Shown one piece after another: positions 12,638 to 60,237 of a DNA stretch of 60,521 bases (position 1 is its first letter; the number at the start of each line of letters is the position of its first letter). The DNA lies in the NCBI GenBank assembly GCA_944389095.1, contig CALXLC010000032.1:1-60521 (forward strand), read 5' to 3'. The DNA is from an uncultured Alphaproteobacteria bacterium. GTDB lineage: Bacteria > Pseudomonadota > Alphaproteobacteria > RF32 > CAG-239. A program made the position numbers and the translations under genes. A model generated the notes under the pieces. That model made no database searches. It saw only the letters and a list, made by a program, of their open reading frames with translations, and was not told the DNA's origin.

Positions 12638-12970
12638 TCAAATAATACTTTGCAGTCTTTCTTCTGAAATAAAACGCGGAAGTTGAGAAGAGGAGCCGTT
12701 TGGCCCGGGCTCAATCTCTCCCGGACGAGGTTCTATCCACGAAATATTGAGGATTTTTTCATACCGCAGCAGCAGGCAGACCAATTCGCTGAGGTGCATA
12801 TTGCTGCAAACGCGATAATTTCCCGCCTCCAGCAAAGCCAGCCGCTGCTTCGAAAACCGGGCGACCGCGAGAGCTTCTTCCGACGTTAATCCTGCGGACA
12901 ACCGAACCGCGCGAAGCTGTGCCCCGAGATTGCGATAAATTTTTTCTTTAATGTCAAAATTTGATTTCAT
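12638..12970 (-). CDS. XRE/Cro-like HTH protein (110 aa, divergent cassette cargo)
   Basis: LGAQLRAVRLSAGLTSEE…LALLEAGN; GGAG upstream of ATG 12970; shares a pattern with the 80-aa HTH of copies B-D. Confidence 0.75.
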   Translation of the reverse strand: MKSNFDIKEKIYRNLGAQLRAVRLSAGLTSEEALAVARFSKQRLALLEAGNYRVCSNMHLSELVCLLLRYEKILNISWIEPRPGEIEPGPNGSSSQLPRFISEERLQSII

Positions 12971-12996
12971 TTTGCAACTCCGTATTTGTTTTGAAT

Positions 12997-13169
12997 AAAA
13001 CAAAACCGCCTTGACTAAAAGTTAAGGCGGGGAGTTCACAACTGTTACAGTGACAGTCTGCCTTATTCGACATACGAATATGCTTATATCAGCAGCTCCC
13101 CAAATGAGGAGTTGTTATTTTACTGTAAGGAGCTGTGACACTCCGCCGTCCGCTCACCGGACGACAGAA
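12997..13169 (-). ncRNA. structured leader RNA, copy A (C4/CI-like architecture, inferred)
   Basis: 5' hairpin, GGGGAG/CTCCCC closing stem, CTGC/GCAG and ACTGT/ACAGT stems, terminal CCGCCTT/AAGGCGG stem plus U tract; compensatory changes relative to the other copies. Confidence 0.7.
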
Positions 13170-13171
13170 TT

Positions 13172-13199
13172 ATGATATAAGATGAAAATGATTTTGCAA
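13172..13199 (-). promoter_or_regulatory. sigma70-like promoter TTGCAA-N16-TATCAT (copy A)
   Basis: Both hexamers and the 16-bp spacing are kept in all four copies, even where the spacer sequence diverges (copy C). Confidence 0.7.
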
Positions 13200-13222
13200 C
13201 AAAAAAGAGCCACAGATAAATA

Positions 13223-34496: not shown

Positions 34497-34592
34497 AAAA
34501 GAACCGCAGTCGGATACGGAAATAATTTGCCTTCCGTTCAGCTTCTGCAGGTGACTTTTTTGTTGCAAAATCATTTTCATCTTATATCATAA

Positions 34593-34767
34593 TTCTGTCG
34601 TCCGGAGAGCGGACGGCGGAGTGTAGCAGCTCCAAATGACAAAAAGAACAACTCCTTAAATGGGGAGCCGGGGGAATAAGCATGTCTGCATGACGAAGAA
34701 CCCGGACTGTTCTGTCATACAGTTGCTAACTCCCCGCTTCGTTGTTGTAACGAAGCGGTTTTGTTTT
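34593..34767 (+). ncRNA. structured leader RNA, copy B
   Basis: Hairpin 34593-34621; TAGCA(34624)/TGCTA(34724) and ATGACA(34636)/TGTCAT(34713) pairs; terminator CCGCTTCGTT/AACGAAGCGG plus TTTTGTTTT. Confidence 0.7.
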
Positions 34768-34794
34768 AATCGAAACAAATTAAGGAGTTACAAA

Positions 34795-35037
34795 ATGTCA
34801 AACAACAAAGAAATGAAGGACTTGTCCCGCGGCGGCCGCCGGTTGGGACAGCAGCTTCACGACCTGAGAATATTCAATCGGTTAAGTATTGAGGAAGTCC
34901 ACGTCAAAACCGGCATACCCACCTGGTGGATAGACGCGATAGAGCTCGGCAACCGCGAACTGAGGCTTGAACATCTTTATGTTCTGGCCAAGTTGTATAA
35001 CCGGAAGGTGGTTATTTCTTTGGAAGACCGAGAATAA
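34795..35037 (+). CDS. XRE/Cro-like HTH protein (80 aa)
   Basis: AAGGAG RBS; LGQQLHDLRIFNRLSIEEVHVKTGIPTWWIDAIELGN; near-identical to 45524-45766 and 58263-58505. Confidence 0.85.
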   Translation: MSNNKEMKDLSRGGRRLGQQLHDLRIFNRLSIEEVHVKTGIPTWWIDAIELGNRELRLEHLYVLAKLYNRKVVISLEDRE

Positions 35038-35041
35038 ATAC

Positions 35042-35069
35042 AAAGGCCGGGAAAATTCCCGGCCTTTTT
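35042..35069. terminator. bidirectional terminator (cassette B / tkt)
   Basis: AAAGGCCGGGAA-AA-TTCCCGGCCTTTTT. Confidence 0.8.
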
Positions 35070-45487: not shown

Positions 45488-45521
45488 AAAAAGGCCGGAA
45501 ATTTTTTCTTCCGGCCTTTTT
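45488..45521. terminator. bidirectional terminator (der / cassette C)
   Basis: AAAAAGGCCGGAA-N8-TTCCGGCCTTTTT. Confidence 0.8.
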
Positions 45522-45523
45522 AT

Positions 45524-45766
45524 TTATTCTCTGTCTTCCAAAGAAATAACCACCTTTCGGTTATATAACTTGGCCAGAACATAAAGATGTTCAAGCCTCA
45601 GTTCGCGGTTGCCGAGTTCTATCGCGTCTATCCACCAGGTGGGTATGCCGGTTTTGACGTGAACTTCCTCAATGCTTAAGCGATTGAATATTCTCAGGTC
45701 GTGAAGCTGTTGTCCCAACCGGCGGCCGCCGCGGGACAAGTCCTTCATTGCTTTGTTGTTTGACAT
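45524..45766 (-). CDS. XRE/Cro-like HTH protein (80 aa)
   Basis: Protein identical to that of 58263-58505; GGAG RBS. Confidence 0.85.
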   Translation of the reverse strand: MSNNKAMKDLSRGGRRLGQQLHDLRIFNRLSIEEVHVKTGIPTWWIDAIELGNRELRLEHLYVLAKLYNRKVVISLEDRE

Positions 45767-45791
45767 TTGTAACTCCATATTTGTTTTAGGT

Positions 45792-45963
45792 AAAACAAAA
45801 CCGCCTTAAGCAACGTCAAGGCGGGGAGTTAAGAACTGTTACAGTGACAGTCTGCCTTATTCGACATACGAATATGCTTATATCGACAGCTCCCCGAAAG
45901 AGGAGTTGTTTTTTACTGTAAAGGAGTTCTTACACTCCGCCGTCCGCTCACCGGACGACGGAA
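45792..45963 (-). ncRNA. structured leader RNA, copy C
   Basis: TAAGA/TCTTA and TTACAGT/ACTGTAA pairs; same stems as the other copies. Confidence 0.7.
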
Positions 45964-46065
45964 TCATGATAATAAATCAAAGCGATTTTGCAACAAAAAA
46001 ATAAAGGCCCAAACCGAAAACGGTTTGAACCTACTATTTTACTCTCAACCTATACCATAGCAGTA

Positions 46066-52880: not shown

Positions 52881-55800
52881 ATGTCTGCGCCGCAATTTGT
52901 TCATCTTCGCGTCCATACCGCCTATTCCTTGTCGGAAGGGGCGATGCTCGTGCCGAAATTAATGCATAAGCTTCATGATTTAGGTATTCCGGCCATTGCG
53001 GTAACCGATACGGCCAACATGTTTGGCGGCAAAGCGTTTTCAAAATATGCGTCGGATGAAGGAATTAAACCAATTCTCGGCTGCCAGTTTTATTTGCGCA
53101 ATCCTGATGCCGATGATGTTCTGAAGGCCCGCGGCCGGACAATCGAGCCGGATAAAATTGTTTTGCTGGTAATGAATGCCGAGGGGTATGCCAACATTAT
53201 GAAGCTGATGAAGCGCTCGTATCTTGACAACCCGCAGTTTAATGAAAAACCTCAGCTCAAAATGTCTGATTTGGAAGAGCTGAACGGCGGACTGATTGCG
53301 CTGACTGCCGGCGTGGAGGGGCAGCCGGGGCGTCTTTTGCTGGAAAACCGCACGGCGGAAGCCGAGCAGGCCGTTGTCAAACTCCGGGAAGTATTCGGCA
53401 ATCGCTTATATATGGAAATCTCCCGCATCGGGCTGGAAGAGGAGCGAAAAACAGAAGAAACGTTCATTGACTGGGCTTATAAATACAATATCCCGCTGGT
53501 GGCAACCAACGAGGCTTTTTTCTTTGATGCGGATATGTATGAAGCACACGATGCGCTGATTTGCATCGCTGCGGGAGAATATGTGGCCAATGACAATCGC
53601 AAAAAATATTCGCCCAACAACCGCCTGCGCAGCCCGCAGGAAATGATTGAACTTTTTAAGGATTTGCCCGAGGCGGTTCAAAACACGATTAATATTGCAA
53701 CCCGCTGCAATTTTCTGTCCGAAAAAGTCCAGCCGCTGCTGCCGATTTTTGAATGTCCGGACGGCAAAACCCAGGATGAGTTCATTACGGAGGAGGCATA
53801 CAAAGGGTTGGCCGAGCGCATGCGTGACCATGTTTATTTCGAGGGCATGACCGCGGCGCAAAAGGACGAGCTTGACCGCAAGTATTACGCCCGTCTGGAT
53901 TACGAACTGAGCGTTATCAAAAAAATGGGCTTTCCGGGTTACTTCCTTATCGTTTCGGACTTCATCCGCTGGTCCAAAACGCATGGCGTACCGGTTGGTC
54001 CGGGACGTGGTTCCGGCGCCGGCTCAATAGTCGCCTGGTCGTTGAAGGTTACCGATTTGGATCCGATTAAGCTTGATTTGCTGTTTGAGCGTTTTTTAAA
54101 TCCCGAACGCGTCAACATGCCGGATTTCGATGTCGACTTTTGTCAGGAAAACCGTTACAAAACCATAGAATATGTGCAGAATAAATATGGTTTTGACCAT
54201 GTGGCGCAGATTATTACCTACGGCAAACTTCAGGCCAAAAACGTGATTCGCGACGTGGCCCGTGTCCTGCAGATGCCATATTCTCAGGCTGACCGCATTT
54301 CCAAAATGATACCGCCCGGCGTTCAGGGGAAAAACCCGACATTGCAGGAATCTCTGGATCAGGTTCCCGAACTGGAGGAAATGCGCCAAACGGATCCGCA
54401 GATTAACAAACTTTTTGATATCGCCATGAAGCTGGAAGGATTGTACCGCCAGTCCGGCATGCACGCGGCCGGCGTGGTTATCGGCGACCGTCCGCTGGAA
54501 GAACTGGTGCCGTTGTACAAAGATCCCAAGGCCGACATGCCGGTAACTCAGTACGATATGAAGTTTGTGGAAGAAACCGGACTGATTAAATTTGACTTTC
54601 TGGGGTTAAAAACACTGACCGTCATCAAACGCGCCGTCGATTGGGTCAAAAAGGTTCACAATATTGATCTGGATATTGAAAAAGTTCCTCTGGACGACAA
54701 ACAGACTTATGAGATGCTTCAGCGCGGCGACACAACGGCCGTCTTCCAGTTTGAATCTCCGGGAATGAAAGATGTGCACAAACAAATCAAACCGGACCGT
54801 TTTGAGGATTTGATTGCTATTGTTTCGCTTTACCGCCCGGGGCCGATGGACAATATTCCGACCTATATCAAGCGCAAGCACGGCGAAGAAGAAATCACCT
54901 ATCTGCATCCCGATTTGGCGCCGATATTGGATGAAACTTACGGCATCATGGTCTATCAGGAACAGGTTATGAAAATTGCCCAGGCGCTGGGCGGATATAC
55001 CATGGGCGGTGCGGACAAGCTGCGCAAGGTTATGGGTAAAAAAATGCGCGATGAAATTCCCAAACAGCGCAAGATGTTTACCGAAGGCGCCGTTGCCAAG
55101 GGGATAGACGAGGGGACGGCCACCAAAATTTTTGACCAGATGGAAAAATTTGCGTCTTACGGATTTAACAAGTCTCATGCGGCGGCATATTCGCTGGTTT
55201 CGTACCAAACGGCATACCTCAAGGCGCATTATCCGGTTGAGTTTATGTGTGCGGTTATGTCTTTGGATATGACCAATGTTGACAAACTGATGCTCTATAA
55301 AGAAGAGTGCAAAAAAATCGGCTTTAAGGTGTTGCCGCCCGACATCAATCATTCCGGAGCCGACTTCTGCGTCGAAAACGGCAATATCCGTTATGCTTTG
55401 GGAGCCATCAAGAGCGTCGGCGCCGCCAATATGGAAGCAATAGAAAAAGAGCGTCTGGCTCATGGTCCGTATAAGGATATTTCCGATTTTATTCACCGGG
55501 TAGACGCCAAGCAGATAAACCGCCGTCAGCTTGAACAGCTGATTAAGGCCGGAGCTTTTGACTGCCTGGATAAAAACCGCGGCAAATTGTTTGCCAATAT
55601 AGAAACAATCATGCAGCATATTGCTTCGGCAACCGAATTGAAAACCAGTTCGCAGTCTTCGCTGTTCGGCACAGAGGAGTTGCAGGCAAAAGTCAAACTG
55701 GCGGAAAAACCGGACTGGCCGGAACTGGAAAAACTTAAGCTGGAGGCTGAGGCCATCGGCTTTTATCTGTCGGCACATCCGTTGGACAGCTATTCCCGGG

Positions 55801-56351
55801 GCATTGAGCGTCTGGGCGTCAAAAAGTGCAGCGAAGTCTTTCACGGCATCCGCGTCGGAGATACGATTCGCGCCAAACTGGCCGGCTGCGTCAATTCTTT
55901 CCAGAAGCGGATTTCCAAAAACGGCAATAAATATGCGTTTCTTGAAATTTCTGACGGCACCAGCAATTTTGAAGGACTGCTGTTTTCGGAAGGACTTGTC
56001 CGGTTTGAAGAAACCATCAATTCGGGACTGCCGCTGCTGGTCAGCGTGACGATAGACAAACAGACGGAAGAAGGCAACCCCAAGGTAATGATTAACAATG
56101 TCGAAACTCTGGACAAAGCTATTGCCGATGTTGCCAACGGACTGGAAATCAGTCTTAATGACGTTTCCGTCGTCCCGAAACTGCACGAGATTCTTAAAAA
56201 AGATAGAAATGGCAAAAATAAAATATATATCAAACCGGATAACGACAATTGGGACATTCGGATAGAGCTGGCGGGCGGCTTTGCTCTTTTTGGCGATGTG
56301 CTGGGACAGATACGCGGCCTTCCGGGTGTGACGACAGTAAAGGAAATTTAA
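52881..56351 (+). CDS. dnaE: DNA polymerase III alpha subunit
   Basis: HLRVHTAYS PHP domain, GPGRGSGAGS, MPDFDVDF, KFDFLGL, YGFNKSHA. Confidence 0.97.
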   Translation: MSAPQFVHLRVHTAYSLSEGAMLVPKLMHKLHDLGIPAIAVTDTANMFGGKAFSKYASDEGIKPILGCQFYLRNPDADDVLKARGRTIEPDKIVLLVMNAEGYANIMKLMKRSYLDNPQFNEKPQLKMSDLEELNGGLIALTAGVEGQPGRLLLENRTAEAEQAVVKLREVFGNRLYMEISRIGLEEERKTEETFIDWAYKYNIPLVATNEAFFFDADMYEAHDALICIAAGEYVANDNRKKYSPNNRLRSPQEMIELFKDLPEAVQNTINIATRCNFLSEKVQPLLPIFECPDGKTQDEFITEEAYKGLAERMRDHVYFEGMTAAQKDELDRKYYARLDYELSVIKKMGFPGYFLIVSDFIRWSKTHGVPVGPGRGSGAGSIVAWSLKVTDLDPIKLDLLFERFLNPERVNMPDFDVDFCQENRYKTIEYVQNKYGFDHVAQIITYGKLQAKNVIRDVARVLQMPYSQADRISKMIPPGVQGKNPTLQESLDQVPELEEMRQTDPQINKLFDIAMKLEGLYRQSGMHAAGVVIGDRPLEELVPLYKDPKADMPVTQYDMKFVEETGLIKFDFLGLKTLTVIKRAVDWVKKVHNIDLDIEKVPLDDKQTYEMLQRGDTTAVFQFESPGMKDVHKQIKPDRFEDLIAIVSLYRPGPMDNIPTYIKRKHGEEEITYLHPDLAPILDETYGIMVYQEQVMKIAQALGGYTMGGADKLRKVMGKKMRDEIPKQRKMFTEGAVAKGIDEGTATKIFDQMEKFASYGFNKSHAAAYSLVSYQTAYLKAHYPVEFMCAVMSLDMTNVDKLMLYKEECKKIGFKVLPPDINHSGADFCVENGNIRYALGAIKSVGAANMEAIEKERLAHGPYKDISDFIHRVDAKQINRRQLEQLIKAGAFDCLDKNRGKLFANIETIMQHIASATELKTSSQSSLFGTEELQAKVKLAEKPDWPELEKLKLEAEAIGFYLSAHPLDSYSRGIERLGVKKCSEVFHGIRVGDTIRAKLAGCVNSFQKRISKNGNKYAFLEISDGTSNFEGLLFSEGLVRFEETINSGLPLLVSVTIDKQTEEGNPKVMINNVETLDKAIADVANGLEISLNDVSVVPKLHEILKKDRNGKNKIYIKPDNDNWDIRIELAGGFALFGDVLGQIRGLPGVTTVKEI

Positions 56352-57159: not shown

Positions 57160-57958
57160 AAAACAACCTGTACAATTAAACCTCCCGTTTTGGGAAACCG
57201 TGAAACGCAGTTTCATGTTTGTCTTAAAAAACATGAAAACATATCTTAAAATTTCGGCGCCGGCATTTGCCATCGTCGTATATGAAATGCTTTGCGGCTT
57301 TCCGATACTCTGCAACATTAATCCGGAAAGCTGTACGCCCGGCATGGCGCAGCGCGGTTCGCTGGCACTGCTGTGGATTGTCTCTTTTGCGGTGACCATT
57401 GCTTTTTGCCGGGTTGTCGTGCTGAAAACGCCGGCGGATTATTTTTCCTTGGCTTTTCTGAAACGCGAATGCAAATATATTTTGTATAATCTGCTGCTTG
57501 TTGCGGCAATTATGCTTCCGGCTTTTCTGTTGATTGCGATTGTGGCGTTTATAGGCAGCTTCTTGGGAATGACGCAAAATTCTTTGGTGACGATAGGCAT
57601 GTTCATTCCGTTGTTGCTGACGATTTATGCCGCGCGGCTGTTCCTGGTCTTTCCCGGAATTGCGGTGGATGATGCCGGCCTGACGATTCAGGAGTCCTTT
57701 CGGATGACCAAAGGCAATGCCAACAAAATTTTCTGGGCACAGATTATTATGATGCTGCCCTGCGGCTTTTTGCTGGTTTCTCTTAGCAGTGCATATATTC
57801 TGCTCAAGACGGACAATTACTTTGTCAATCTGATTTTTGTTCTGCTTTATATGGCTTTGTCGTTTTTGGATTCTTGCTTTAAGGCGTCGTTCTACGGTCA
57901 TATTTATCAGTACTTCACATTTTACAAAACCCACGATGTTCCGTCAGAAGACAAATAG
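57152..57958 (+). CDS. hypothetical multi-TM membrane protein
   Basis: About six TM helices; RLFLVFPGIAVD…ESFRMTKGN motif; overlaps the preceding stop. Confidence 0.72.
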   Translation: MTEKQPVQLNLPFWETVKRSFMFVLKNMKTYLKISAPAFAIVVYEMLCGFPILCNINPESCTPGMAQRGSLALLWIVSFAVTIAFCRVVVLKTPADYFSLAFLKRECKYILYNLLLVAAIMLPAFLLIAIVAFIGSFLGMTQNSLVTIGMFIPLLLTIYAARLFLVFPGIAVDDAGLTIQESFRMTKGNANKIFWAQIIMMLPCGFLLVSLSSAYILLKTDNYFVNLIFVLLYMALSFLDSCFKASFYGHIYQYFTFYKTHDVPSEDK

Positions 57959-57968
57959 TCTGCATGAC

Positions 57969-58005
57969 AACAAAAACTCCCGGCATTGTTCCGGGAGTTT
58001 TTGTT
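57969..58005 (+). terminator. intrinsic terminator
   Basis: AACAAAAACTCCCGG-N7-CCGGGAGTTTTTGTT. Confidence 0.85.
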
Positions 58006-58066
58006 TGGATTGAGCGGGGCGAAAAAGTTTTTTCTGTTGCAAAATCATTTTCATCTTATATCATAA

Positions 58067-58236
58067 TTCCGTCGTCCGGTGAGCGGACGATGGAGTGTCA
58101 CAGCTCCTTCACGAAACGAACAACTCCTTAGATGGGGAGCCGGGGGAATAAGCATGCCTGCATGACGAAGAACCCGGACTGTTCGTGAACAGTTGTGAAC
58201 TCCCCGCCTTAACGTTGTTTAAGGCGGTTTTGTTTT
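58067..58236 (+). ncRNA. structured leader RNA, copy D
   Basis: TCACA(58098)/TGTGA(58194) and TTCACGAA(58108)/TTCGTGAA(58182) pairs; terminator CCGCCTTAA/TTAAGGCGG plus TTTTGTTTT. Confidence 0.7.
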
Positions 58237-58262
58237 AATCGAAACAAATATGGAGTTACAAA

Positions 58263-58505
58263 ATGTCAAACAACAAAGCAATGAAGGACTTATCTCGCGG
58301 CGGCCGCCGGTTGGGACAGCAGCTTCACGACCTGAGAATATTCAATCGCTTAAGTATTGAGGAAGTCCACGTCAAAACCGGCATACCCACCTGGTGGATA
58401 GACGCGATAGAACTCGGCAACCGCGAGCTGAGACTGGAACATCTTTATGTTCTGGCCAAGTTGTATAACCGGAAGGTGGTTATTTCTTTGGAAGACCGAG
58501 AATAA
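58263..58505 (+). CDS. XRE/Cro-like HTH protein (80 aa)
   Basis: GGAG RBS; same protein as copy C and one residue different from copy B. Confidence 0.85.
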   Translation: MSNNKAMKDLSRGGRRLGQQLHDLRIFNRLSIEEVHVKTGIPTWWIDAIELGNRELRLEHLYVLAKLYNRKVVISLEDRE

Positions 58506-58559
58506 ATACAAAGGCCGGAAGAAAAACTTCCGGCCTCGCTAATTTGAAATTTCAGCAGG

Positions 58560-59858
58560 TTAGCCCTCTGAATCGTCTTTAATCCGCTCAATTTGAGCGC
58601 CGACGCCGCGAAGTTTTTCTTCCAGCTTTTCATAACCGCGGTCAAGATGATAAACACGATTGACGATAGTTTCGCCTTCGGCCACCAGGCCGGCCAGAAT
58701 TAATGCAAACGAAGCGCGCAAATCCGTAGCCATAACCGGCGCCCCTGAAAGCTTTTTAACCCCGCGGACAATTGCCGAAGCATGACCGTGAACATTAATA
58801 TTTGCCCCCATGCGCAACAGTTCAGGAACATGCATAAAGCGGTTTTCAAAAATTGTTTCCGTAATCATTGAAGCGCCTTCCGCCGTCAGCATCAGCGCCA
58901 AAAACTGTGCCTGCAAATCTGTCGGAAAACCGGGAAAAGGCTCGGTCATAATATCTTTGCCGACCAGAGTGCAGCCCTTGGCATCCACCAAAATGCTGTT
59001 TTCGTTTTCGGTCACGCGCACGCCCATATCGCGCAAAACCTGCATCGGACGTTTCAGGGTAGAGGGCAGGGCGTTGACCAACTCAATTTTGCCGCGGGTA
59101 ATTGCCGCCGCCACGGCATAGGAACCGGCCTCAATACGGTCCGGAATAACCTTGTGTTTGGCACCGTGAAGCTTGTCTACGCCGTCAATCGTTAAAACAG
59201 CTGTTCCGATACCTTCGATTTTGGCGCCCATGGCATTCAGCAAATTTGCCAGATCGCCGATTTCCGGCTCTTTGGCGGCGTTTTCCAAAACCGTACGCCC
59301 TTCGGCCAGTGTGGCAGCCATCAAAACATTGCAGGTCGCGCCGACCGATACCATCGGAAAAATGATATGCGCCCCTTTAAGGCGTTTATCGACTTTGGCA
59401 TGAATATAACCGTTTTTGATTTCAATGGATGCGCCCATTTGTTCAAGCGACGAAAGGTGAATATCCATCGGCCGGGCACCGATGGCGCAGCCGCCGGGAA
59501 GCGAAAGCTCGCATTTTCCGTAGCGTGCCAGCAGCGGGCCTAAAACATAATAAGAAGCGCGCATTTTGCGAACATAATCATAAGGCGCCGTCAGGCTGGT
59601 TGCCTCCTTGGTCCGATAAGAATAAGTCTTGGACGGATGATTGTCTGCAAAATCGTCAAACTCGTCGATTTTGGTTCCGAGTTGCTCCAGCAGGGCATTC
59701 ATGGCTTTAATATCCGAAAGCATCGGCATATTGGTAAGCGTTACCGTTTCGTCAGTCAGCAGACTGGCGCAAATGAGGGGTAAGGCGGCGTTTTTGGCTC
59801 CGCTGATATAGATTTTGCCTTCCAGACATTTTCCTCCGGTAATTTTGATTTTATCCAT
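58560..59858 (-). CDS. murA: UDP-GlcNAc 1-carboxyvinyltransferase
   Basis: [47 protein letters not shown]. Confidence 0.97.
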
Positions 59859-60162: not shown

Positions 60163-60237
60163 GCCGCTGTAGCTCAGTGGTAGAGCACGTCATTGGTAAT
60201 GACGGGGTCGCAAGTCCGATTCTTGCCAGCGGCACCA
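60163..60237 (+). tRNA. tRNA-Thr(GGT)
   Basis: Full cloverleaf: GCCGCTG/CAGCGGC acceptor stem, CGTCA-TTGGTAA-TGACG anticodon arm, encoded CCA. Confidence 0.95.

Follow-up and report, generated by a model that had tools for sequence, protein, structure and literature searches.

An RNA of about 170 nucleotides (nt) that probably gates a small helix-turn-helix (HTH) gene was identified in a 60,521-nt stretch of DNA, hereafter the window, from an uncultured gut alphaproteobacterium (GenBank assembly GCA_944389095.1, contig CALXLC010000032.1). The RNA lies in a gap of 305 nt between the end of a membrane-protein gene (57958) and an open reading frame (ORF) of 80 amino acids (aa; 58263-58505). Judging from aligned homologues, it has two mutually exclusive folds, both of which covary: fold A, built from the helices P1, P2, and T, and fold B, built from the helices X':tail and P4. 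In the model that we favor, with confidence somewhat above even, these folds would join a terminator, an antiterminator, and a lock on the ribosome-binding site (RBS) into one switch for the HTH gene. The RNA family is well defined and appears to be new, as neither an Rfam match nor an earlier description was found.

A sequence-only reading of the window had proposed an attenuator-like switch at this locus, with a short terminated RNA as the default product and the HTH protein made on structural switching. The observations behind it are confirmed. All of the elements that it named (the GC stem, the U tract, AAACAAA, and the GGAG and CTCC segments) are present where they were placed, in 4/4 copies in the window and 14/14 full copies in the genome. 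The covariation described below supports its interpretation in part.

Layout of the Unit

The features of the locus, in window coordinates, are as follows.

58037-58064 (+): sigma70-like promoter (TTGCAA, 16 nt, TATCAT) preceded by a T run, from a consensus scan
58069-58237 (+): structured RNA, from 5' hairpin to end of U tract; match to covariance model R1, 189.3 bits
58071-58091 (+): P0, 5' hairpin of 8 base pairs (bp), loop GTGAG; double changes in 8/8 pairs across homologues
58092-58105 (+): 5' strand of the closing stem P1 (GGAGT, bulged G, T-CAC-AGCT)
58110-58115 (+): 5' strand of P1c, CACGAA, hypervariable; partner TTCGTG at 58182-58187
58124-58139 (+): P2 hairpin CTCCTT/GGGGAG, with the 3' strand X' (58134-58139) as candidate antiterminator strand
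58140-58177 (+): P3 hairpin CCGGG/CCCGG; double changes in 5/5 and 4/4 pairs
58178-58193 (+): P4, alternative hairpin ACTGT...ACAGT, incompatible with P1c and inner P1
58191-58203 (+): 3' strand of P1, AGTT-GTG-A and then ACTCC; AACTCC forms the putative anti-RBS tail
58200-58205 (+): CTCCCC, partner of X' in the alternative antiterminator helix; shares the first 2 nt of the terminator stem
58204-58236 (+): intrinsic terminator T, with a 9-bp stem and a 6-nt loop, then TTTTGTTTT
58228-58248 (+): predicted hairpin of the U tract with AAACAAA (58242-58248) in read-through RNA
58252-58257 (+): RBS GGAGTT, complement of the tail AACTCC
58263-58505 (+): XRE-family HTH gene, 80 aa
58511-58537 (+): hairpin 3' of the HTH gene, AAGGCCGGAAG...CTTCCGGCCT, where the repeated unit ends; palindromic, and called on the - strand by the scan

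These features suggest, with more confidence than doubt, a self-contained unit of promoter, ~170-nt switch RNA, small XRE-type HTH gene, and terminator that occurs in many diverged copies. A regular expression for the promoter matches 59 of the 88 distinct stretches upstream of RNA homologues, most of which carry the same promoter form at the same distance. The ~26 nt between the U tract and the start codon leave no space for a separate promoter. The bounds given in the sequence-only reading enclose a real element, while their start at 58092 omits the promoter (58037-58064) and the conserved 5' hairpin (58071-58091).

The GC stem and U tract that had been described ahead of the ATG correspond to T. 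Its stem, CCGCCTTAA/TTAAGGCGG at 58204-58227, has nine pairs (five of them G-C) and a loop of 6, and is followed directly by UUUUGUUUU; the consensus scan called a terminator-like hairpin at 58204-58227 followed by TTTTGTTTTA. The U tract TTTTGTTTT itself occupies 58228-58236 and ends 26 nt 5' of the ATG at 58263. As had been stated, the left arm of this stem overlaps the CTCCCC of the closing stem, namely by the first two terminator bases, the string being the 3' arm of P1 (ACTCC, 58199-58203) running into T. The GGAG segments lie at 58092 (GGAGT), 58134-58139 (GGGGAG), and 58252-58257 (GGAGTT), and the CTCC segments at 58103-58107 (GCTCC), 58120-58127 (ACAACTCC), and 58198-58205 (AACTCCCC). 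The GGAGT of the P1 5' strand resembles an RBS, and the inner triplet CAC of this strand is hypervariable. P3 carries a conserved internal loop (AATAAG/CGAAGAA) and an inner hairpin, CATG-cctg-CATG. No conserved leader peptide was found, the sole in-leader ATG (58090) being absent from the other copies.

Fold A and Its Covariation

The RNA at 58070-58240 (171 nt) has a predicted minimum free energy of -71.3 kcal/mol (z = -5.2), and 0/200 dinucleotide shuffles fold as well. Fold A consists of P0, the long closing stem P1, the inner hairpins P2 and P3, and the terminator T, which abuts P1. Within P1, GGAGU, a bulged G, and UCACAGCU pair with AGUUGUGA and ACUCC. G-U pairs are frequent, which fixes the transcribed strand as +.

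Among the 14 full copies of the genome, standard pairs fill 98.9% of 629 pair cells, and 14/45 pairs show double changes; this level of pairing was reached by 0/500 shuffles, and sliding the partner strand gave 35-43% paired. The covariance model R1, built from these 14 copies, retrieved homologues from other genomes. In the alignment of 95 matches (93 distinct), pairing holds in 96.6% of 4028 cells, and compensatory changes are seen in 41/45 pairs, again with 0/500 shuffles reaching the observed covariation and slid controls at 36-46% paired. One weak antisense match among the 95 rows was removed from later scripts, which use 94. The terminator stem shows compensatory changes in 9/9 pairs across homologues, and the U tract is retained in nearly all of the 94 matches.

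Two segments of fold A vary strongly and keep their pairing. The inner triplets of P1 (58099-58101 with 58195-58197) are variable yet complementary, as in CAC/GUG, AGC/GCU, CGA/UCG, AAG/CUU, and GAC/GUC. P1c, a 6-8-bp helix that joins the linker 3' of GCUCC to the segment 3' of GACUGUUC, is hypervariable and always complementary; its longest cognate helix has a median of 8 bp in 87 distinct RNAs vs 5 bp in 1710 non-cognate combinations. Single-stranded elements, namely AUAAG/CGAAUAA in P3 and AAAAAGAACAA, are highly conserved, with adjoining stems that vary freely, and some members can do without the inner P3 hairpin. It was also observed that the same few triplets (CAC, CGA, AGC/AGU, GAC, AAG, CAU, and others) reappear across genomes, with modules shuffled mosaically between copies.

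Fold B, an Alternative Pairing

A second set of helices uses bases already engaged in fold A. X' (GGGGAG, 58134-58139) has its complement in CUCCCC (58200-58205), a string made up of the last four bases of P1 and the first two of T. Among 57 distinct X'/tail combinations, the Watson-Crick run measures 6-9 bp in 53 (6 bp in 28, 7 in 16, 8 in 6, and 9 in 3) and 4 bp in one; the three others score 0 owing to a one-base shift in extraction. X' tracks the tail in eight sequence classes, with a matching tail for every X' variant, and non-cognate classes average 3.8 bp. Matched pairs include GGGGAG/CUCCCC (36/36), AGGGAG/CUCCCU (6/6), GCGGAG/CUCCGC (2/2), and UGGGAG/CUCCCA (2/2), and further matched classes are GAGGAG/CUCCUC, UGGAAG/CUUCCA, and AGGAAG/CUUCCU. 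The competition between GGAG and CUCC segments posited from the sequence is thereby supported in silico, in that X' follows the CUCC tail together with the first terminator bases and the tail in turn follows the RBS.

For the terminator switch that had been proposed, GGGGAG with CUCCCC supplies an antiterminator candidate, but its helix would remove just 2-5 of the nine terminator pairs. In the most diverged subfamily, to which the paralogue C35:22012-22212 of this genome belongs, the X':tail helix is 9 bp long and takes in 3-4 nt of the terminator arm.

The other helix of fold B, P4, has compensated variants (ACUAU/AUAGU in 4 rows, ACAGU/ACUGU in 3 rows). Scored on the R1-fitted alignment, X':tail is paired in 97.2% and P4 in 87.4%. 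P4 is read as part of a separate conformer because it takes bases of P1 and P1c and leaves no linker for a pseudoknot. A pseudoknot containing P4 and P1c together was considered and rejected on geometry, there being no linker bases between P1c and the 3' strand of P4. Another candidate antiterminator, in which CCGCC of the terminator would pair with GGCGG at the P0/P1 junction, was rejected by eye, as the terminator variant CCACC occurs without an upstream change in GCGG.

A Predicted Lock on the Ribosome-Binding Site

When the RBS is included in the fold (RNAalifold and single-sequence predictions), the tail moves from the GGAGU of P1 to the RBS. The predicted tail:RBS pairing closes a junction that encloses T and the hairpin between the U tract and AAACAAA. 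Over 69 distinct leaders, the predicted unpaired probability of the RBS averages 0.20, vs 0.55 without the RNA upstream of T, and falls below 0.2 in 47/69 leaders vs 8/69 in this control. The base before CUCC complements the base after GGAG in 44/46 distinct pairs (A-U 34, G-C 8, G-U 2), and among distant relatives a CUUCC tail is mostly accompanied by a GGAAG-type RBS.

Pairing of the U tract with the downstream AAACAAA had been put forward as an alternative to termination. The pairing itself covaries and is predicted to help sequester the RBS; UUUCUUUUU with AAGAAA and UUUCAUU with AAAUGAAA are two of its many compensated forms. Its mean energy over the 69 leaders is -3.9 kcal/mol, vs -1.1 kcal/mol for shuffles, and in 46/69 leaders at most 5/100 shuffles are as stable. 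This hairpin cannot antiterminate because it is transcribed past the termination decision point, so the proposed role as an alternative to the terminator does not hold.

Copies in the Window, the Genome, and the Wider Lineage

A blastn search of the window retrieved four copies, at 58029-58520 (+), 34556-35050 (+), 46001-45509 (-), and 13206-12968 (-). Beyond the copy described above, they contain the following features.

34595-35037 (+): second copy; RNA 34595-34768, 80-aa HTH gene 34795-35037
45524-45961 (-): third copy; RNA 45791-45961, 80-aa HTH gene 45524-45766
12638-13167 (-): fourth copy; RNA 12996-13167, a different, 110-aa HTH gene 12638-12970

The whole assembly (1.55 Mb, 47% G+C, 60 contigs) holds 14 full copies, a fragment, and a diverged copy. 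Within the genus, 37/55 further genomes contain R1 matches, the largest number being 33 in a 1.4-Mb genome. In an order-level sample, they occur in 27/40 other genomes, which cover 11/12 genera and a second family. Weaker matches were found in 9/150 other genomes sampled across the class, of which seven look genuine when aligned and the other two do not. When one genome per species was scanned with a pattern, at least 111 loci were retrieved. Among the matches listed, all lie in metagenome-assembled genomes (MAGs) filed under uncultured Alphaproteobacteria, 'Azospirillum sp.', Proteobacteria, or 'Candidatus Scatocola faecipullorum', and their sources are human, mouse, deer, and chicken gut.

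The RNA also occurs in head-to-tail arrays of two to three copies ~220-280 nt apart, in which every copy has a promoter of its own and the intervals contain no HTH gene (loci L061, L005, L042, L063, L064, and L068). In the clearest case, L061 (G083:C2:66956-67618), three RNAs are found and an HTH gene stands behind the last copy only. A few RNA copies precede unrelated DNA. RNA copies in tandem without an HTH gene suggest that the terminated RNA may also have a function of its own.

Two further loci of this genome are probably decayed copies. One, G000:C39:5859-6021 (L024), is a copy of a second subfamily (GGUGU, AGCUCC, RBS GGAGCU) followed by merely a 16-codon ORF. The other, G000:C15:11565-11648, is a lone 84-nt fragment with promoter and 5' hairpin.

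Downstream Genes and Surroundings

Of the 14 copies of the genome, six precede an 80-aa ORF and a seventh a 79-aa relative; four precede a 118-aa ORF, two more an ORF of the 118-aa kind cut by a contig end, and one a 110-aa ORF. Among copies, the leader is conserved as well as the ORF or better. The leader of the window copy at 12638-13206 (-) is ~83% identical to that of the 58029 copy, whereas the ORF is quite different, and the presence of a similar leader before a very different 110-aa HTH gene indicates that leaders and ORFs have been recombined. In most of the 94 R1 matches, a GGAG(U/C)U-type RBS comes next, and a 72-120-aa ORF starts 20-32 nt after the U tract.

Sequence and profile comparisons assign the downstream ORFs to the XRE/Cro-C1 family of HTH proteins. 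The 64 distinct complete ORFs have a mean column identity of 24% yet form one family. A profile of 42 ORFs matched the XRE-type structure 7t5u (E 2.3e-10), DdrOC, the controller protein C.BclI, and HipB in the PDB, and Pfam (E up to 0.01) assigned HTH_25 to 28 of the 42, HTH_31 to 27, and HTH_3 to 21. Scanned alone, the 80-aa protein of the window scored 19.3 bits in Pfam, under the cut-off of 27; its AlphaFold model has four helices and a confidence (pLDDT) of 90.7.

Diverged relatives of the RNA precede non-HTH genes in other families of the class (L096, L098, L099, L100) and in the second family of the order (L078, L079, L082). The products encoded there are proteins with signal peptides or lipoprotein signals, a protein resembling outer-membrane proteins, and a prepilin-like protein. 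The diverged relative in the present genome, G000:C35:22012-22212 (-), is followed by a 57-aa ORF. Such relatives keep the tail/RBS and antiterminator complementarity with altered sequences (CUUCC/GGAAG, GACUGGAAG/CUUCCAGUC).

Several observations concern the units as DNA. Similarity among the units 58029-58537, 34556-35050, and 45509-46001 is abrupt, running from the T run before the -35 element to the terminator behind the ORF, and no terminal repeats or transposase were seen at these three units. The ~490-bp units are set between housekeeping genes, for example, dnaE (52881-56351) and murA (58560-59858, - strand). Upstream of the promoter, the membrane-protein gene ends in a terminator of its own at ~57975-58005. 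The promoter spacer (58043-58053 in the window and the same place elsewhere) carries short palindromes, AAAATCATTTT or AAATCGCTTTGATTT; compared by eye across copies, these show no correlation with the type of downstream HTH gene. A tRNA-Thr (GGU) gene lies near the window end, at 60163-60237.

Proposed Mechanism

Energy calculations place fold A well below fold B. The terminator hairpin T contributes -13.4 kcal/mol, and forcing X':tail, averaged over 79 RNAs, costs +10.9 kcal/mol once the RNA is released and +7.5 kcal/mol while it is nascent and the 3' arm of T has yet to be transcribed; the penalty for fold B ranges from 0 to 20 kcal/mol across these RNAs. During transcription, a local hairpin GGAGU...GCUCC is predicted to be stable first and to be displaced later by P1. 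As fold A is far stabler, the RNA is expected to terminate by default, and fold B would depend on help from a factor or from folding kinetics. The short terminated RNA that had been proposed as the default product is therefore likely on this in silico evidence, the terminating fold being the thermodynamic default and the terminator conserved (9/9 pairs compensated).

The switch model would then work as follows. In fold A, RNA polymerase would stop at the U tract and release a stable small RNA. In transcripts that leak through, the tail would capture the RBS, aided by the U-tract/A-tract hairpin. A trigger, which might be a ligand, a protein, another RNA, or folding kinetics, would shift the balance to fold B, in which X' would pair with the CUCC tail and the first 2-5 nt of T and P4 would replace inner P1. 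T would thereby be shortened from 9 bp to 4-7 bp and the anti-RBS tail tied up, such that the HTH mRNA would be both made and translatable.

Several points weigh against this model. In most RNAs the energy gap between the folds amounts to 5-20 kcal/mol in favor of fold A. The antiterminator covers just 2 nt of the terminator in most copies, with a 7-bp hairpin still possible. The CUCC of P2 that is freed in fold B could itself capture the RBS, which leaves the 'translation on' state undefined. The probability of RBS:tail pairing is at least 0.5 in just 37/69 leaders, and the tail/RBS covariation derives largely from a few ancient subfamily splits rather than from many independent events. The R1 alignment was fitted to the structure of fold A and favors that fold. 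Finally, five public sequencing runs contain part of the stretch as assembled contigs, and the sole contig that crosses the terminator, of 251 nt, comes from a related copy (~93% identical; 58141-58380) in run X1, which is recorded as RNA. Such contigs show neither 3' ends, strand, nor level, and DNA carry-over is possible for the X1 contig, from which nothing was concluded.

Alternative Explanations

The first alternative is a special case of the switch model that names the type of trigger: a riboswitch-like leader that senses a ligand or protein, with the P3 internal loop and the A-rich junction as the pocket that chooses between folds A and B. The high conservation of AUAAG/CGAAUAA and AAAAAGAACAA beside freely varying stems is consistent with such a pocket, and the distant relatives before lipoprotein-, outer-membrane-protein-, and pilin-like genes would fit a general sensor. 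Conversely, the gene context yields no ligand, as regulators and surface proteins give little hint of a metabolite; a metabolite riboswitch would not normally reach 14-33 copies per genome; and the inner P3 hairpin can be lost. The Rfam scans of the window and of 57950-58550 matched no known aptamer. This proposal is put forward as tentative, well short of an even chance. A broader form of it is equally speculative: the RNA might represent a sensor of a new class, whether an orphan riboswitch or a switch that responds to a protein or an RNA, employed by several families of host-associated Alphaproteobacteria and gating 10-30 paralogous XRE regulators per genome and, in its distant relatives, lipoprotein, outer-membrane, and pilin-like genes. 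The hypervariable stems (the 3-bp NNN and the 6-8-bp P1c) might in that case serve as copy-specific identity tags or folding toeholds, each copy switching independently.

The main rival to the switch model, which we hold to be rather unlikely, is an autonomous and abundant trans-acting small RNA (sRNA) gene, with the HTH protein expressed by constant low read-through and no switch in cis. The additional complementarities would then be folding intermediates or C-rich anti-RBS seed motifs directed at other mRNAs. Its own promoter and strong terminator, the tandem copies without intervening HTH genes, the copies that precede unrelated DNA, and the greater stability of fold A are all in keeping with this explanation. 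Trans action has also been proposed for Brt1 of Bartonella in sections of PMC5387305 and PMC8070961. An autonomous sRNA does not, however, account for the covariation of the tail/RBS and U-tract/A-tract complementarities, which use bases outside the terminated RNA, and the fixed spacing of 20-32 nt to the RBS in most copies favors coupling in cis.

An ordinary structured 5' untranslated region, in which the 'terminator' is merely a stabilising hairpin and the HTH gene is constitutively transcribed and translated, could explain the metatranscriptome contig of a related copy that spans the hairpin (58141-58380; DNA carry-over possible), yet it is highly improbable, given that the hairpin and U tract are shaped like the adjacent gene-end terminators (57975-58005 and 58511-58537), that the hairpin is retained in tandem arrays where no gene follows, and that the RBS is predicted to be sequestered. 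XRE-family dimers bind palindromes, and the TTTTGTTTT..AAACAAA palindrome could thus be an operator at which an HTH dimer blocks read-through, or the whole unit, with its sharp borders (T run to terminator) and its scattering between housekeeping genes, a mobile DNA cassette; a role at the DNA level is nevertheless very hard to credit, as the G-U pairs in many helices work solely in + strand RNA, the palindrome sequence bears no relation to the very different HTH types, and neither terminal repeats nor a transposase were seen.

Comparison with Known Systems

At gathering thresholds, the sole Rfam 15 match in the whole window was the tRNA, and at E up to 10 the best match overlapping the RNA within 57950-58550, sRNA-Xcc1, scored 18.5 bits where the threshold is 53. 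Rfam families, alphaproteobacterial ones included, thus gave no match to the RNA. Among multicopy, often tandem alphaproteobacterial sRNAs are the 'cuckoo' or CcsR-type RNAs, short RNAs that display CUCC-type anti-RBS motifs in hairpin loops; in the RNA described here, by contrast, the CUCC motifs lie in stems of a 170-nt multi-helix structure.

Classical attenuators and riboswitch platforms employ terminator and antiterminator helices, and some also mask the RBS. The present locus has a G+C-rich hairpin and U tract between promoter and gene and a conserved helix that uses the 5' arm of the terminator. The order of elements is likewise similar, with a putative anti-antiterminator (P2), an antiterminator (P2 3' strand with the 5' side of the terminator), and the terminator, and an anti-RBS strand is common to the alternative helices. 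The RNA differs from these systems in having neither a conserved leader peptide nor a known aptamer, in an antiterminator that shares 2-5 nt with a terminator ~60 nt away, and in a terminated product that resembles a stable RNA in its own right.

Full-text literature searches returned no description of this RNA, and unnamed entries of a microbiome RNA catalogue are the sole possible traces. That catalogue (Fremin and Bhatt 2021, PMC8040213) names HTH_XRE as the domain most often encoded directly 3' of its candidate RNAs. HMP2_3310 (82 bp) has 118 instances, almost all from 'Azospirillum sp. 51', directly upstream of HTH_31 genes, and HMP2_7263 (40 bp) occurs in CAG:495 and CAG:239 with HTH_XRE among its commonest neighbor domains (PMC8040213). 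Both may be fragments of this RNA, as judged from their descriptions. They differ from it in their length of 40-82 bp and their two covarying bases, and the catalogue gives them no name, structure discussion, or mechanism; neither appears in its table of expressed candidates (PMC8040213).

The closest described system is Brt/Trp of Bartonella, which has the same design, although no homology to it was detected in the comparisons given below. As characterized in the relevant parts of Tu et al. 2016 (PMC5387305), Brt1-9 are 194-203-nt RNAs with a 3' stem-loop, located 10-18 nt upstream of the promoter-less XRE genes Trp1-9, with copy numbers of 0-34 per genome; they are reported to be confined to the genus Bartonella. 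The Brt family is delimited by BLAST similarity within that genus. According to passages of a review (PMC8070961), deletion of the brt1 3' stem-loop raises trp1 transcription, and a reporter downstream of brt1 responded to heme. To the extent covered by these accounts, the two systems share a highly structured RNA of ~170-200 nt with its own promoter and 3' stem-loop, a position a few to ~25 nt upstream of a small promoter-less XRE-type HTH gene, and many diverged copies in widely varying number (0-34 in Bartonella, 0-33 matches here). Both hosts are Alphaproteobacteria, and the 3' stem-loop would attenuate the HTH gene in both, as shown by deletion in Bartonella and as deduced here.

Five Bartonella plasmid loci, assumed to be the plasmid 'Brt' copies of PMC5387305, served as proxies for the comparison, which did not include the chromosomal Brt1-9. 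They comprise a conserved element of ~250 nt directly upstream of an HTH gene in B. grahamii, B. kosoyi, B. harrusi, B. krasnovii, and Bartonella sp. TT0105 (L104 26440-26700; L216-L219), with a predicted closing helix CCGGGAG/CUCCCGG. R1 run with filters off found nothing significant in plasmid pBGR3 (best E 0.02 at an unrelated place, E ~1 upstream of the HTH gene), and all E values were above 0.6 at the four other loci. BLASTP found no similarity between the HTH proteins described here and the Bartonella ones. The plasmid elements also have a different consensus fold and no U-tract terminator, and the host here, unlike Bartonella, belongs to an uncultured lineage of gut commensals.

In the proposed model, the RNA would thus work like Brt/Trp and like classical attenuators, in a lineage about which little is known. 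If the model is right, gut Alphaproteobacteria (MAGs 'Azospirillum sp. CAG:239' or 'Ca. Scatocola') use one reusable RNA switch, which unites terminator, antiterminator, and RBS lock, to control a large family of small transcription factors. This would be a second, apparently independent instance of the Brt/Trp design, previously described as Bartonella-specific. The RNA is a well-defined candidate for Rfam and, as an orphan switch, one whose trigger merits a search, and because its covariation is far richer than that of Brt, the mechanism is directly testable with compensatory mutants.

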